DNA from: Lachnospiraceae bacterium
GTDB taxonomy: Bacteria; Bacillota; Clostridia; Lachnospirales; Lachnospiraceae
NCBI GenBank assembly: GCA_017463225.1
Contig: JAFTPO010000012.1
Location: 607 to 64,606, forward strand
Direction of reading: 5' to 3'
Length of the DNA: 64,000 nt
Shown here: one piece after another, positions 16,011 through 62,856 of the stretch
Layout of the letters: each line of letters begins with the position of its first letter
Numbering within the stretch: the stretch's first letter is position 1
Program-made: the position numbers and the translations under genes
Notes under the pieces: model-generated
Database searches by the model: none
What the model was told of the DNA's origin: nothing
The model's input: only the letters and a program-made list of their open reading frames with translations

Positions 16011-16154
16011 TATACATATAAAGAGGGCGTTGGGATATATTTCAATCCGGCCGCGACAGGGTAATGCGCAGCTGACCGTTTTAGTGTCAGCGAAGCATTA
16101 TCCCTAGGCAGGCCGGCCAAGGAAGTATATCTTTACGCTCTCTACGTATGTATA
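16011..16154 (-). repeat. structured GC-rich core (16046-16122, minus orientation) nested in a long imperfect AT-rich hairpin; copy A
   Basis: The reverse complement of 16046-16122 aligns with the cores at 42151-42224 and 51905-51977 (see findings). Arms 16011-16043 and 16122-16154 are imperfectly complementary. Confidence 0.75.
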
Positions 16155-16157
16155 AAA

Positions 16158-16451
16158 TTATATTAAGTACCACACTATTGAAAGTACTGTGCTTGTAAGT
16201 CCGATTAAAGCCTCGTAAGGTATAAGCTTCATACGGTCGCTTATGCTTATGTCGCAGATTGGATGAAGTGCAAATAGGATACTGCACAGATTACCATAGT
16301 GCTAACTGTTGTCTCAAGGCCGTCGCCACCCATAAGACCATCGATGTGAGCTCCTTAATATTAAGCTATATGCTGGAGAAACCTTTTTGATAATGAGTAC
16401 AATGGCGATTACTAATCCTACGATTGCGCCTAAAGTTGTAAATTCGTACAT
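16158..16451 (-). pseudogene. remnant of a GntP-family (gluconate/glycerate) permease gene: frameshifted and internally deleted
   Basis: ATG 16451, 2 nt after the glxK stop, gives MYEFTTLGAIVGLVIAIVLIIKKVSPAYSLIL. The frame then breaks. A shifted frame reads GAHIDGLMGGDGLETTVSTMV; a last frame ends ..MKLIPYEALIGLTSTVLSIVWYLI*. About 290 nt remain where ~1.3 kb is expected. Confidence 0.5.
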
Positions 16452-37844: not shown

Positions 37845-38047
37845 CTTAATTAAGTACCTACATATATCTGGGATGAGCGATATGACTTGGCCACATGATC
37901 CTACAGGACTTAATAGGGAATCCTATATTTGTAAGCAGATGTCAGGCCTCCTTTGTCAGTGGAAGGCAGAAACTTACGTGCGGACACCCACCTAGCATAA
38001 GCTAGGAGTCATACGCCAAGAGACGCCATTCTGGATATATATTTTTT
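37845..38047 (+). ncRNA. candidate 6S-like regulatory RNA (long rod, large central bubble, apical hairpin)
   Basis: 37862-37903 pairs with 38003-38040, about 32 bp including three G.U pairs that exist only on the + strand. Two unpaired strands of 27 and 25 nt flank an apical hairpin at 37931-37977. The 3' arm runs into ATTTTTTG. The glyA promoter lies downstream of it. Confidence 0.4.
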
Positions 38048-41526: not shown

Positions 41527-42114
41527 ATGGAATACAATTTTTTTGCAACTATTTCCAGAATGAAGTATATAGAGAGATGGGCGCTTATGCGCAACACAAG
41601 ACCTGAGAACCTGTCTGAACACAGTATGGATGTCAGTATGATAGCACATGCTCTGTGTGTGATAGGTAATGTTAGATATGGTAAGAGTCTCAATGAGGAA
41701 AAGGCGGCTCTTATGGGTCTGTATCATGATGCCACTGAGATTATAACCGGAGATATGCCAACTCCGATTAAGTACTATAACAGTAGTATAAAGGAGAGCT
41801 TCAAGGCTATAGAGGAGGATGCCAAGCATTCTCTCTTAAAGCAGCTTCCTGAGGATATGAAGGGTTACTATGAGAAGCTTTTCTTTAAATCACCTGAGCT
41901 TAGCTATGAGTGGAAGCTGGTAAAGGCAGCAGATAAGCTGTCAGCTCTCATAAAATGTATGGAAGAGGAGAAAACCGGCAATAAGGAGTTTGTAAAGGCT
42001 AAGGAAGCAACTGCCGAAAAGGTAGACAAGCTAAGCGAGGAATACCCTGAGGTGAAGGATTTTGTGAAGGAGTTCCTGGGAGCTTACAGCAAGACATTAG
42101 ATGAACTAAATTAA
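41527..42114 (+). CDS. HD-domain 5'-deoxynucleotidase (YfbR-like)
   Basis: RWALMRNTRPENLSEHS.., LYHDATEIITGDMPTP: YfbR-type HD motifs. Confidence 0.8.
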   Translation: MEYNFFATISRMKYIERWALMRNTRPENLSEHSMDVSMIAHALCVIGNVRYGKSLNEEKAALMGLYHDATEIITGDMPTPIKYYNSSIKESFKAIEEDAKHSLLKQLPEDMKGYYEKLFFKSPELSYEWKLVKAADKLSALIKCMEEEKTGNKEFVKAKEATAEKVDKLSEEYPEVKDFVKEFLGAYSKTLDELN

Positions 42115-42123
42115 ATGAAATAT

Positions 42124-42251
42124 AAAACAGGGCTGTGGGACGAAACATATCGGCCGACCTGCCTAGGGATAAAGCTCCGCTGACACTAACACGGTCAGCT
42201 TCGCTTCACCCTGGCGCGGTCGGGATGTAAATAACCTCACAGCCCTGTTTT
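42124..42251 (+). repeat. structured GC-rich core (42151-42224) nested in a terminator hairpin; copy B
   Basis: Outer stem AAAACAGGGCTGTGGG pairs with CCTCACAGCCCTGTTTT. The core aligns with copies A and C. Lies between convergent genes. Confidence 0.8.
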
Positions 42252-42264
42252 ATATTTCGTTTAA

Positions 42265-42990
42265 TTATATCCAGCCTCCGTCAAATTTGATAACTTCTCC
42301 AGTAAGGTATTCAGGCATATTTAGAATGCCTTTGATGCATTTAGCAGCCTCTATAGGCGTGCACATTCTTCCATATGGGATTTCTTCCTCGAGCTGGGCT
42401 ATCTCATCATCAGAAAGATGTCCGTTCATTGTGGTGTTCACGGCACCGAAGGCAATGGCATTAACGGATATATTGCTAGGAGCAAGCTCCTTTGCTAAAG
42501 CTTTGGTAAAGGCGTTAATTGCGCCCTTTGTAGTTGAATAGGCAACCTCGCAGGATGCTCCAACCAATCCCCATACAGAGGAGATATTGATTACCTGTCC
42601 GGACTTCTTGTTTATCATGTGTGGGAGCGCTGCGTGGCAAAAATTATAAACTGAATTAATATTAACATTCATAATTTGCTGCCAGGAATCAGGAGTGGTA
42701 TCCGTAAATAGACCAACCTGAGAGATGGCGGCATTATTTATCAGAGTAGTAACCTCCCTGGCATCACTGATGACTTTATCTACCATTTCCTTAGCAAAGT
42801 TATAATCTGACACATCGCCAACCATAGCAAGACATTGCTTTCCCATAGCTTTGATTTTATCCATTAGCTCACCCAGCTTTTTCGTATCCTTGCTGCAGCA
42901 TATTGCAATATAATCGTAATCCTTGGCTAGTAAATATGCGGTCTCATAGCCTATACCTCTGGAGGCTCCTGTAATAATTATTGATTTCAT
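42265..42990 (-). CDS. short-chain dehydrogenase/reductase (FabG-like)
   Basis: ITGASRGIG, NNAA, SxxxxxxxxxxxxYxxxK (YSTTKGA). ATG 42990; the ORF-track start at 43080 lacks support. Confidence 0.88.
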   Translation of the reverse strand: MKSIIITGASRGIGYETAYLLAKDYDYIAICCSKDTKKLGELMDKIKAMGKQCLAMVGDVSDYNFAKEMVDKVISDAREVTTLINNAAISQVGLFTDTTPDSWQQIMNVNINSVYNFCHAALPHMINKKSGQVINISSVWGLVGASCEVAYSTTKGAINAFTKALAKELAPSNISVNAIAFGAVNTTMNGHLSDDEIAQLEEEIPYGRMCTPIEAAKCIKGILNMPEYLTGEVIKFDGGWI

Positions 42991-43175
42991 ATATAAACTC
43001 CTTACATTTTGATAAGAATAAATAATCAATACTGACTTTGTTCTGAATTTGATTATCCTATAAATGGTTGAAAAACACAACAGAATTTGTTATACTAACT
43101 CGAAGTAAAATATAAAAGTAATTAATAAAGAGTAGTATTTGTATATAAATATAGATTGTTTTTGGAGGAATAATT

Positions 43176-51328: not shown

Positions 51329-51868
51329 ATGTATGAGAATATTTTGGGGAGACCCATACCTGTTGTAAATGAGAAGACGGTGCGAGGGAATTACAAAAAG
51401 CTTACTAATCTTCTGATTGATAATAAACTTAGTATCACAACTATGGAGAGTGCAACCTCGGGACAGATAGCTTCATTGATAACTGATACAGAAGGGGCTT
51501 CAGCTATATTTAAGGGGGCATATGTGACTTATTCCAATGAGATGAAGATAAAGTGTGGTGTTCCTGCTGAGACCATAGAGAGATATTCGGTGTACTCAAA
51601 GGAAACTGCAGAGGCTATGGCTGTTGCATGTAAGGAGGCATTTGGGGCAGATATAGGGATAGGTGTAACAGGCACTATGGGAAATGTAGACCCGGCCAAT
51701 CTGAAAACTTCTCAGCCTGGAATGATATATTATGCCATAAGTATAGGGGATAAGATAGCAAGCTATGAGAGAAAGCTTTTTCCACAGCCAAGTCGCTATA
51801 TGTATAAGCTGGCTGTAGCAGATATGATATGTGCATCCATTATGGAGTTAATTGAAGAAGTTAAATAG
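51329..51868 (+). CDS. CinA C-terminal-domain protein (nicotinamide-nucleotide amidohydrolase PncC-like)
   Basis: ITTMESATSGQIAS.., YSNEMK.., GVTGTMG: CinA_C pattern. Confidence 0.82.
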   Translation: MYENILGRPIPVVNEKTVRGNYKKLTNLLIDNKLSITTMESATSGQIASLITDTEGASAIFKGAYVTYSNEMKIKCGVPAETIERYSVYSKETAEAMAVACKEAFGADIGIGVTGTMGNVDPANLKTSQPGMIYYAISIGDKIASYERKLFPQPSRYMYKLAVADMICASIMELIEEVK

Positions 51869-51876
51869 ATTGATGA

Positions 51877-52003
51877 AATAAAAAAGAAAAAACCAGGAGA
51901 CAATATACTTTCTTGGCCGGCCTGCCTAGGATCGGTCCACGCTGACACTAACACGGTCAGCTTAGTCCCGACCACTGTCGCGGCTGGATTATAAGTATAT
52001 ATC
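51877..52003 (+). repeat. structured GC-rich core (51905-51977) nested in a terminator hairpin; copy C
   Basis: Outer stem AAAAAACCAGGA..ATATACTT pairs with AAGTATAT..TCCTGGTTTTTT. The core aligns with copies A and B. Confidence 0.8.
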
Positions 52004-52119
52004 CTGGTTTTTTCTTTTTAAACCACAAGTTAAAGGAATTTAAATCCGTTTCCTGCTATCATTATATTAGAAGAAAGTGGTGAATATGACTGCTTATAGA
52101 GTGATTGTGATAGGGAGGA

Positions 52120-61673: not shown

Positions 61674-62735
61674 ATGGGAGAAAAGAAGAATAAGAAGTTG
61701 CCTATTATAATAGGTGTTAGCGTGGTGTTGGTTATAGCCATTGTTTTGGTTTTGGTATTAGTTCTTGGTGGGCATAGAGTCATTAAGGTTCAGTCCTTTG
61801 ACGGTCAGGTTACCCTTGAGAGAGGCTCTGGCGCTAAGGATATGGTTGAGGGTATGAACCTAAAGTCAAAGGACAGGGTAATTACCGGAAGTGATGGTTT
61901 AGTTGAGCTTTTGGTAGATGAGGATAAGCATATTTTAGCCAAAGAAAATACCTGCTTTAAGATAGAGGCAAAGGGAAATGAAAACAAGGGAAAGCTTAAG
62001 ATTAAGCTGGAATACGGAACATCCTTGGTGGAGATAGAAAATAAGCTTGCTGATGGCTCATCAGTTGAGGTGGAAACTCCAAATGCTACTCTCAGTGTTC
62101 GTGGAACTACATTTGAGACAAGCTACAACCAAGGAGATGATGCAACAGTAGTTAAGGTTAAAAGTGGTGCAGTAAAGGTAGAGTCTGATAAGGAAGAAAA
62201 AGAAATTCAAGCTGGTCAGATGGCTACAGTAAAGGACGATACCATAGAAGTAGAACCATTGCCATTTGAGATAAGCTTTACTGATGAGGTTGCTTTTGTT
62301 GCAAGAAATTCAGGAGATAATAGTGATTCAGCAATCTCAGTAATGCAGCTTGATGGCTGGGAATACATACCTGTAGAAGACAGAAGTTCAAGCCAGCCGG
62401 ACGTTTTTACTCATGAAAGTGGTGTTAAGATTCGTTACTGGGTACTGACAGAGTCTCAGGTAAATGAGTGGATCGATGATGATGCAGGTATGGGATGGAT
62501 AGCCAGCTTAGATTATCTTAAAAATAAAGATGGAGATACCATAATATGTGAGGAGCTTCATTTTAATGGAGATATAGGTGAGGATATAACCTTTGCTTAT
62601 CAATATTATAAGGAGACACAAGATGGTGTTTATATATCCGTAATGGTATATGATGAGCTTAAGGGAGCTTCTTTAGCTGATACAAAGATTGAGGCATTTC
62701 TTGATTTAACTATCAATGAAGGCTTCGTATATTAA
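61674..62735 (+). CDS. membrane-anchored FecR-domain protein
   Basis: N-terminal TM segment. FecR-like beta domain (..VETPNATLSVRGTTFETSY..VKVKSGAVKV). Confidence 0.7.
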   Translation: MGEKKNKKLPIIIGVSVVLVIAIVLVLVLVLGGHRVIKVQSFDGQVTLERGSGAKDMVEGMNLKSKDRVITGSDGLVELLVDEDKHILAKENTCFKIEAKGNENKGKLKIKLEYGTSLVEIENKLADGSSVEVETPNATLSVRGTTFETSYNQGDDATVVKVKSGAVKVESDKEEKEIQAGQMATVKDDTIEVEPLPFEISFTDEVAFVARNSGDNSDSAISVMQLDGWEYIPVEDRSSSQPDVFTHESGVKIRYWVLTESQVNEWIDDDAGMGWIASLDYLKNKDGDTIICEELHFNGDIGEDITFAYQYYKETQDGVYISVMVYDELKGASLADTKIEAFLDLTINEGFVY

Positions 62736-62763
62736 TTTGATTTGGAACAGTAATATAAAATAG

Positions 62764-62837
62764 AAAAAACCAGGAGACCATATACTTTCTTGCCGACTAC
62801 TGAGTGGCCGGATTATAGGTATGTCCCCTGGTTTTTT
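62764..62837 (+). repeat. core-less relative of copy C: same outer arms, 20-nt apex (62792-62811); copy D
   Basis: Left arm AAAAAACCAGGAGACCATATACTTTCTT is 27/28 identical to copy C. Right arm is ATTATAGGTATGTCCCCTGGTTTTTT. The apex GCCGACTACTGAGTGGCCGG replaces the 73-nt core. Confidence 0.65.
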
Positions 62838-62856
62838 CTTTGGTTTATCTAAAAGC

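Follow-up and report, generated by a model that had tools for sequence, protein, structure and literature searches.

A small foldback repeat, probably mobile, at the apex of predicted terminators in gut Lachnospiraceae

Why do hairpins at the ends of functionally unrelated genes carry the same GC-rich structure at their tips? The question is raised by a 64,000-nucleotide stretch from a Lachnospiraceae bacterium (GenBank assembly GCA_017463225.1, contig JAFTPO010000012.1, positions 607 to 64,606 of the forward strand), hereafter the window. A sequence-only reading of the window had described terminator hairpins, at 16.0, 42.2 and 51.9 kb, whose apex is formed by a GC-rich core of three stems. 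All three sequences were confirmed here, and a fourth copy, at 62762-62841, had been missed. We consider it fairly likely that the structure is a small non-coding palindromic (foldback) mobile repeat, comparable to MITEs (transposable elements of the miniature inverted-repeat kind), REPINs or SPRITEs, at terminator apices.

The copies are designated A to D (Table 1). The apical hairpin, GCTGACACTAAMACGGTCAGC (21 nt), occurs exactly three times in the window, against zero expected from 100 shuffles. The GC content of the cores is 62-66%, compared with 38.9% for the window. Copy B folds at -82.9 kcal/mol (z = -12.9), and copies A and C at -62.6 and -57.7 kcal/mol, respectively. As described earlier, each core forms the tip of a long hairpin that directly follows a gene and ends in a T-run. 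The core coordinates given earlier hold for copy B, while those of copy C were 10 nt off (51915-51987, not 51905-51977) and those of copy A also needed correction. Open reading frames (ORFs) across the element are spurious, and they are not conserved between types of the element.

The homology extends beyond the three stems, which are named P1, P2 and P3 from the base to the loop. The copies also share homologous AT-rich arms, ~13-16 nt long, on both sides (consensus AATATACTTTCTT ... AATGAAGTATAT). Thus, the unit is ~105 nt, not 73 nt as first proposed, and ~140-150 nt when the outermost stem is included. The arms pair as terminal inverted repeats (AATATACTT... / ...AAGTATAT), and the whole unit is an imperfect palindrome. 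The four copies of the window and all copies from relatives have an outer stem and a T-run no more than ~15 nt from a gene end, as in predicted intrinsic terminators. The element occupies the apex of predicted intrinsic, often bidirectional, terminators at gene ends.

Across 185,579 species genomes (one genome per species), the apical-hairpin pattern was found in only seven places. They belong to RGIG8543, RGIG6221, SIG302 and Wujia sp., four Lachnospiraceae metagenome-assembled genomes (MAGs) obtained from water deer, sheep and the like. In each of the seven places, this core with its arms forms the tip of a different hairpin, and a T-run follows. RGIG6221 has one exact match on each of three contigs of 48, 161 and 176 kb. 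Two orthologous pairs are included (L001/L005 and L002/L007; fetched loci are numbered with L), and the remainder are distinct sites. The exact-pattern scan undercounts the family, because the copy in L044 emerged only via synteny. A covariance model (R1), with which copy A scores 107.6 bits, was run over ~300 kb of fetched loci and detected only the known copies, one shortened copy, one decayed copy and the L044 copy. Further copies, which the sequence-only reading had suggested looking for, are thus present in relatives by both pattern scan and synteny. The family is restricted to a narrow group of ruminant/gut Lachnospiraceae (Wujia and relatives).

The element is found at no fewer than nine non-orthologous sites, each with a different terminator hairpin and T-run. 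The adjacent genes are unrelated in function; they encode a hydrogenase, deoxynucleotidase, CinA, FecR, histidine kinase, aminotransferase and ABC ATPase. Three sites lack the element in relatives: those of YfbR (copy B), CinA (copy C) and FecR (copy D). At the YfbR site, the element is present in all contigs encoding the identical YfbR protein. In L019-L021, whose YfbR is 94% identical, the conserved flanks enclose a plain bidirectional terminator of 55 nt, AAAATGGCTGTGTGG-TTAATT-CCGCACAGCCATTTT. L022 and L027 (81-82% identity) also have plain terminators. At the CinA site, L035 (75% identical CinA) has GGGAGACA-GAGTA-TGTCTCCC and a T-run, followed by the conserved downstream flank AAACYACAAGTTAAAGGAATTTAA, and L022 has a plain terminator. 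At the FecR site, L043 has a plain terminator, and L044 (Wujia sp. MAG GCA_045543915.1) has a full-length copy. The L044 copy carries P2 of type 3 and is opposite in orientation to the deleted type-2 copy of the window, and its outer stem, GGGCGCGGGA, differs from that of copy D. Since the orthologs without the element are 75-94% relatives, the boundaries of the element are uncertain by ~3 nt.

Decayed copies are also observed. Copy D is the same as copy C in the A-tract, outer stem and T-tract (GAAAAAACCAGGAGAC ... GTCCCCTGGTTTTTTCTTT) and in the arms (CATATACTTTCTTG ... GGCCGGATTATAGGTATG), and its core is reduced to CCGACTACTGAGT by a deletion between CCG microhomologies. It still folds as a predicted terminator hairpin (-33.2 kcal/mol). 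A second decayed copy, with two internal deletions, lies inside the terminator AAAACGGACGAG...CTCGTCCGTTTT in L042. A possible relic in L041 consists of a sole arm-like sequence, ATATATTTTCCTT, between the stems CTGTGCGA and TCGCACAG. In several Logan unitigs and metagenome contigs, the contig ends inside the core (L013-L015, L018, L032 and L034), and in L016 and L033 the core is joined chimerically to the 3' flank of another copy. Such breaks and chimeras are the usual behaviour of dispersed repeats in assemblies.

Gain, loss and degradation of the element occur within the time that separates species and strains. The distribution is that of an apparent insertion or replacement followed by decay, not that of ancient shared ancestry. 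The element is a small non-coding unit, at several non-orthologous sites and missing from some of them in relatives, as a MITE is. Among the roles proposed by the sequence-only reading, an element that targets terminator loops is favoured by the plain terminators in relatives, the non-orthologous sites and the decayed copies.

How could such insertions be tolerated at gene ends? The element would fold back on itself through the arms, P1, P2 and P3 and would thereby rejoin both halves of the terminator stem. By this reunion the terminator would survive, and the gene would retain a working hairpin and U-run. The insertion would therefore be nearly harmless, and host selection would then keep the pairing.

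The structure itself was analysed with 11 sequences aligned to the model, a small and related sample below R-scape grade. RNAalifold and direct pair counts gave one long hairpin composed of the arms, P1, P2 and P3. In the alignment, 98.6% of cells are standard pairs, and pairing falls to 17-44% when the partner columns are slid. Five pairs are altered on both sides. The covariation score is 0.215, compared with 0.093 for shuffled alignments, and none of 500 shuffles reached 0.215. One of the five is a C-G to U-A change in P3 of L044, where GCTGAC/GTCAGC is replaced by GTTGAC/GTCAAC around the loop ACTTAAAACG. The L044 copy is free of search-pattern bias, because it was found through synteny.

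P1 is seen as CCGGCC/GGCCGG, CCGACC/GGTCGG and CCCACC/GGTGGG. P2 has three versions, which are unrelated in sequence and each of which pairs: GGG(A)TAAWGC with GCWTTACCC (type 1), GGTCGG with CCGACC (type 2) and GG(TA)TTGGG with CCCAACC (type 3). The P2 of copy B has a single A-C mismatch. The covariations of P1 and P2 reported earlier are correct on the alignment. Mean pairwise identity rises from 0.46-0.59 in the arms and 0.59-0.64 in P2 with its junctions to 0.87-0.90 in P1 with the outer junctions and 0.93-0.97 in P3 with the loop, the last values being biased upward for nine of the 11 sequences. In agreement with the sequence-only reading, this suggests constraint on sequence in some parts and on pairing alone in others. 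Selection on a folded nucleic acid, certain segments of which matter for structure only and others for their specific sequence, is indicated by the three pairing versions of P2 against the near-constant P1, junctions, P3 and loop. The blocks which had been called invariant and unpaired require revision. They are invariant within the window, but in relatives TGCCTA is replaced by TGTCTA, TGACTA or GTAAGCCTA, and TGNCGC by TGTGGC. Part of them is able to pair, as UGCC does with GGCG in copy B. Among copies, the loop varies by an A/C polymorphism and by an insertion of 1 nt.

That P1, P3, the junctions and the loop of 9-10 nt stay constant across the three P2 types points to a trans-acting factor which recognises the folded form. 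A factor binding double-stranded terminal repeats would not select compensatory changes between the arms, which also argues for recognition of the folded form. The factor probably sees the element as a hairpin, in single-stranded DNA, a cruciform or RNA. The factor may be a transposase that targets hairpins (IS1182/IS1272-like or IS150-group) or an enzyme of the Y1/HUH type.

The same conservation allows another interpretation, in which the repeats are not a mobile unit but have been domesticated or parasitised as a recognition or nicking site, similar to repetitive extragenic palindromes (REPs), or as a landing pad, for an HUH/Y1 enzyme or another insertion sequence (IS). Cleavage or docking would take place at the 9-nt loop on its GC-rich stem of 6 bp. 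P3 and the loop are indeed the most conserved part, the compensatory change in L044 keeps P3 paired, and the covariation suggests that a single strand is recognised in its folded state. Insertion sequences are known to target REP hairpins and the apices of terminators, and one such case was found at a copy-free site of this study. In L025 and L026 (JGI metagenomes 3300029305 and 3300024272), an IS-like element lies exactly at the apex of the YfbR terminator, between GAGGATGTGTAT and ACATCCTC, and L027 has the uninterrupted allele of this terminator palindrome. The IS-like element in L025 has the end GTACCGACCCCCAAAAGTTAGACC and an ORF starting with MAKYSYEFKKKVIMSYLNGEGGY. The 23-aa N-terminus of this ORF matches 358 Enterococcus/Lactococcus plasmid records, of which the single record inspected is unannotated and degenerate. 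This IS-like element may belong to the IS3/IS150 group. However, no copy of the repeat was seen with a larger element interrupting its loop, and the variation of the loop also speaks against this interpretation. A GTAG or CGTC tag, such as REPs typically carry, is absent from both ends of the unit and of its halves in the alignments, and the fetched DNA contains no RAYT or TnpA gene. Such a recognition site or landing pad is very unlikely.

If the folded form is RNA, the element could be a host-beneficial cis-acting module of the 3' untranslated region (3'-UTR), that is, a protein-binding site, an element for RNase processing or stabilisation, or a source of 3'-derived small RNA. Its place at terminator apices would follow from its function there, and its spread would be secondary. 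Stems which covary around junctions and a loop constant across three P2 types would be expected of it. Its best argument is the conservation of orthologous copies, which is far above that of flanking intergenic DNA. L002 and L007 match at 100% identity along ~140 nt, a stretch that includes the outer stem specific to the locus, compared with 85% for the whole region and ~60% for the neighbouring intergenic DNA. Between L001 and L005, the inner 57 nt are identical, and the arms, J1 and the outer stem (with compensatory changes) differ. Our reading is that this conservation would reflect selection for a working terminator hairpin together with constraint at the level of the element. The plus strand of the element is the sense strand at both sites between same-strand genes (copy C and L002/L007). 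Nevertheless, neither strand is consistently better folded as RNA; the mean difference between the plus and minus strands is 0.9 kcal/mol and its sign varies (minimum free energies; G-U counts were also compared). Convergent genes flank at least six of the sites, and there transcription of both strands is possible. The flanking genes are functionally unrelated, and the same genes lack the element in close relatives. Copies without P3 and P2 persist as terminators, and both orientations occur at the FecR site. No observation demands an RNA-specific function. The protein-binding or processing RNA listed among the earlier candidates is disfavoured by the lack of strand asymmetry in folding, the variable presence among close relatives and the persistence of deleted copies as terminators, and we judge such a module unlikely. 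On present evidence, the element is not a new riboswitch or ribozyme candidate.

Several points weigh against a mobile foldback repeat. No autonomous partner, transposase or Y1/HUH gene was found near the copies or in the ~300 kb of fetched sequence. Pfam searches of the ORFs neighbouring L001, L003, L004 and L006 detected housekeeping, HTH-AIRS and HNH proteins and no transposase. No parent IS with the same ends was found in the fetched loci or in plasmid and phage collections. No direct repeat indicating a target-site duplication is evident at any junction examined, and no conserved flanking target motif is evident across sites. The copy number seems low (four in the 64 kb of the window), unlike typical REP or MITE bursts. 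Conservation is highest at the centre, in P3 and the loop, and this would be unusual in a MITE. The strong conservation of orthologous copies would also suit a host function. Finally, several different sites have common outer stems (CTGTGC...GCACAG, GGAATC...GATTCC and CCAGGAGAC). A simple model of insertion into any loop does not account for these recurring stems, nor for the CTGTG...CACAG that the copy-free ortholog of site B also has.

The recurrence of outer stems is as follows. Copies C and D have CCAGGAGAC, the A-tract and the T-tract in common; the overlap includes 17 nt on the 5' side and, on the 3' side, the stem and T-tract except three bases adjoining the arm. The outer stem AAAGGGCTGTGC / GCACAGCCC is common to L003 and L006, L016 and L033 show its 3' half, and a close variant, ACAGGGCTGTGG / CACAGCCC, occurs in copy B. 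The GGAATC stem is common to L002 and L004. A stem of this sort, GGCTGTG...CACAGCC, is already present in L019, the copy-free ortholog of site B, and in orthologs further removed the stem reads GGATGTG...CACATCC. The stem of copy B, CAGGGCTGTG, is nearer to the stems of other copies than to that of its own ortholog. The mobile unit may include the terminator stem, as in the "mobile terminator" described for SPRITEs. Alternatively, targets which resemble the outer repeat of the element may be preferred, or copying may be aided by short homology between stems.

These stems also raise the alternative of passive spread, in which no dedicated enzyme is involved and the element moves between terminators with stems that are similar by chance, through ectopic gene conversion or through template switching during replication. 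The core would be carried along as a stable palindrome. The common stems at different sites (C/D; L003/L006/L016/L033 with the copy B variant; L002/L004), the similar stem at the copy-free ortholog of site B and the affinity of the copy B stem to those of other copies all agree with it, as do the lack of target duplication and of a nearby transposase. Still, the outer stems of copy A, L042 and L044 (GGGCGCGGGA) are unrelated, and a microhomology of 7-10 bp is short for recombination. Passive spread leaves unexplained the constant P1, junctions, P3 and loop with P2 replaced three times. The presence in multiple species would require either old ancestry, which is contradicted by the copy-free sites, or horizontal transfer. 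It is quite unlikely that the element has spread in this way.

A hairpin-homing version of the mobile foldback repeat is more specific, and we hold it to be rather unlikely in this full form. The element would be a self-contained "mobile terminator" of a new kind. An enzyme would recognise its three-stem core as a folded single strand (ssDNA or RNA), and the unit would specifically enter or replace the apex of the resident terminator. P1, the junctions and the P3 loop would be fixed, and P2 would be free to vary. Decay would renew the terminators, and the relics at 62.8 kb, in L042 and possibly in L041 would already serve as ordinary-looking terminators.

The mobile foldback repeat was compared with known systems. 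Dispersed palindromic repeats at gene ends, terminator-like repeats and hairpin-targeted insertion are all known kinds. SPRITE has been described as a mobile terminator-like repeat; like the element, it is a small non-coding repeat of a Firmicute, with a stem-loop and T-run that resemble, and probably work as, an intrinsic terminator, and its copies are scattered over gene ends (review PMC10969869). By description, the element differs from SPRITE in its GC-rich three-stem core nested in the terminator stem, its three interchangeable P2 versions, and its apparently low copy number in a few rumen/gut Lachnospiraceae. REPINs (REP-BIME), which are mobilised by RAYTs, are likewise extragenic palindromes of ~100 nt near the 3' ends of genes, with a long imperfect hairpin, covarying stems and short conserved motifs. 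The element lacks their GTAG/CGTC tag and does not consist of two short REP hairpins arranged as a doublet, and no RAYT gene was seen in the fetched loci. Its copies are apparently in the tens, not in the hundreds, and its host is a Firmicute; RAYTs are rare in Firmicutes.

Insertion into hairpins is known from larger elements. IS1272/TnSha1 of the IS1182 family inserts into terminator hairpins of Firmicutes (staphylococci), where it deletes part of the target and leaves no target duplication (PMC4923244), and several insertion sequences target REP hairpins (PMC1525189). In IS1272/TnSha1 and in IS1397/ISKpn1 (IS3 family, IS150 group), insertion into the hairpin shows little primary-sequence specificity (PMC4923244; PMC1525189). 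The element resembles IS1272/TnSha1 in that no duplication is visible and the target stems seem to be partly replaced. These autonomous elements and composite transposons exceed 1 kb and encode a transposase, in contrast to the non-coding ~105 nt of the element. The MITEs Correia/NEMIS of Neisseria and ERIC of enterobacteria, which act as terminators, are small, non-autonomous and palindromic, and form long hairpins in mRNAs, similar to the element. Their terminal repeats are defined, their target sites are duplicated (TA for Correia), and the IS families from which they derive can be recognised. In the element, no target duplication or parent IS was found, and the centre, not the ends, is most conserved.

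Searches for known families gave the following results. A Rfam scan of the whole window at gathering thresholds, which the sequence-only reading had called for, detected 6S RNA only and nothing at the copies, in line with the failure of that reading to match the core to an RNA family. Rfam scans by E-value around copies A, B and C gave chance-level matches only (MIR8562, 23.6 bits against a gathering score of 211; S4-Clostridia, 12.2 against 37.5; WT1-AS_7, 6.5 against 50). Plasmid and phage collections contained no match to the element (blastn, distant mode), and viral contigs no match to the P3 apical-hairpin pattern. Three matches of viral contigs to the P1+J1 pattern lie in GC-rich coding DNA and are due to chance, as is a single apical-hairpin match in a sediment contig from JGI metagenomes, which is without any other feature of the element.

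Other candidate identities were rejected. No tRNA or tmRNA gene was found. A Cas13a-repeat-like ACUAAAAC matches for just 8 nt and lies in a loop that is polymorphic; if the loop formed a pseudoknot with CCUAGG, it would have just 3 bp. Both are considered chance, and resemblances to a K-turn and to domain V of group II introns were dropped as chance short matches. An integron attC site does not fit, as there is no GTTRRRY box at the ends and the flanks are housekeeping genes in conserved synteny. A PATE derived from IS200/IS605 would lie 3' of a conserved tetra- or pentanucleotide and have separate subterminal hairpins at its two ends; here the 5' flanks vary by site (GCGT, TGGG, GAGAC, GTGC, GAATC and ACGAG), and the unit is a single continuous hairpin. 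The element is not assignable to any named family: there is no Rfam match, REP tag, target duplication, IS200-type target or parent IS.

Table 1. Positions of the foldback repeat and of associated features in the window and in fetched loci
Feature	Location	Position	Strand	P2 type	Parts	Context and basis
Copy A, whole predicted terminator hairpin	Window	16011-16155	-	1	Element with arms 16031-16134; GC-rich core 16047-16118; apical hairpin 16071-16091 (-)	Between convergent genes for Fe-only hydrogenase (+, ends 16000) and glycerate kinase (-), by Pfam; sequence, covariance model R1, fold
Copy B, whole bidirectional predicted terminator hairpin	Window	42110-42265	+	1	Covariance model match 42136-42239; core 42152-42223; apical hairpin 42179-42199 (+)	Between convergent genes for YfbR-like 5'-deoxynucleotidase (41527-42114, +) and short-chain dehydrogenase (42265-43080, -)
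Copy C, whole predicted terminator hairpin with A-tract and T-tract	Window	51880-52019	+	2	Covariance model match 51899-52003; core 51915-51987; apical hairpin 51941-51961 (+)	3' of CinA-family gene (51329-51868, +), 5' of AAA+ gene (52120, +)
Copy D, internally deleted derivative	Window	62762-62841	+	2		3' of FecR-domain gene (61674-62735, +)
Short ORF fragments	Window	16158-16451	-			Between glycerate kinase gene and copy A
6S (SsrS) RNA gene	Window	37862-38041	+			RF00013
Full-length copy	L044	3587-3691	-	3		FecR site
Decayed copy	L042	14655-14735	+			Two internal deletions
Possible relic	L041	18523-18560				Arm-like sequence between stems
Chimeric join	L016	1603-1760				In core
Chimeric join	L033	1409-1560				In core
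IS-like element	L025	10606-10730				Apex of YfbR terminator
Alkaline phosphatase and YibE/F genes	L041	14966-18177				Just past the right end of the window
PTS_2-RNA (RNA 2'-phosphotransferase) gene	L042	14640-15448				Just past the right end of the window

Some additional features were observed around the copies. The short ORF fragments between the glycerate kinase gene and copy A have no Pfam match, and the first of them resembles a hydrophobic N-terminus. They may be a remnant of a degraded gene. The 6S RNA gene is full-length and scores 63 bits against a gathering score of 46.4. Just past the right end of the window, two strains differ in gene content: L041 has alkaline phosphatase and YibE/F genes, and L042 instead has a PTS_2-RNA gene, with the decayed element copy at the junction.

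If the mobile foldback repeat is true, it would be a clean example from gut Firmicutes of a selfish repeat which uses the terminator tip as its niche and whose own folding makes the insertion harmless. It would also provide a path of terminator remodelling, from a plain hairpin to a compound hairpin of 150 nt and then to a decayed relic. For metagenomics, the repeat produces contig breaks and chimeric joins in assemblies. The fixed P1, junctions and P3 loop, combined with the freely covarying P2, offer a bait for a hairpin-recognising enzyme or protein, and the conserved three-stem core with its strict niche at the terminator apex gives an experimental handle on the family.

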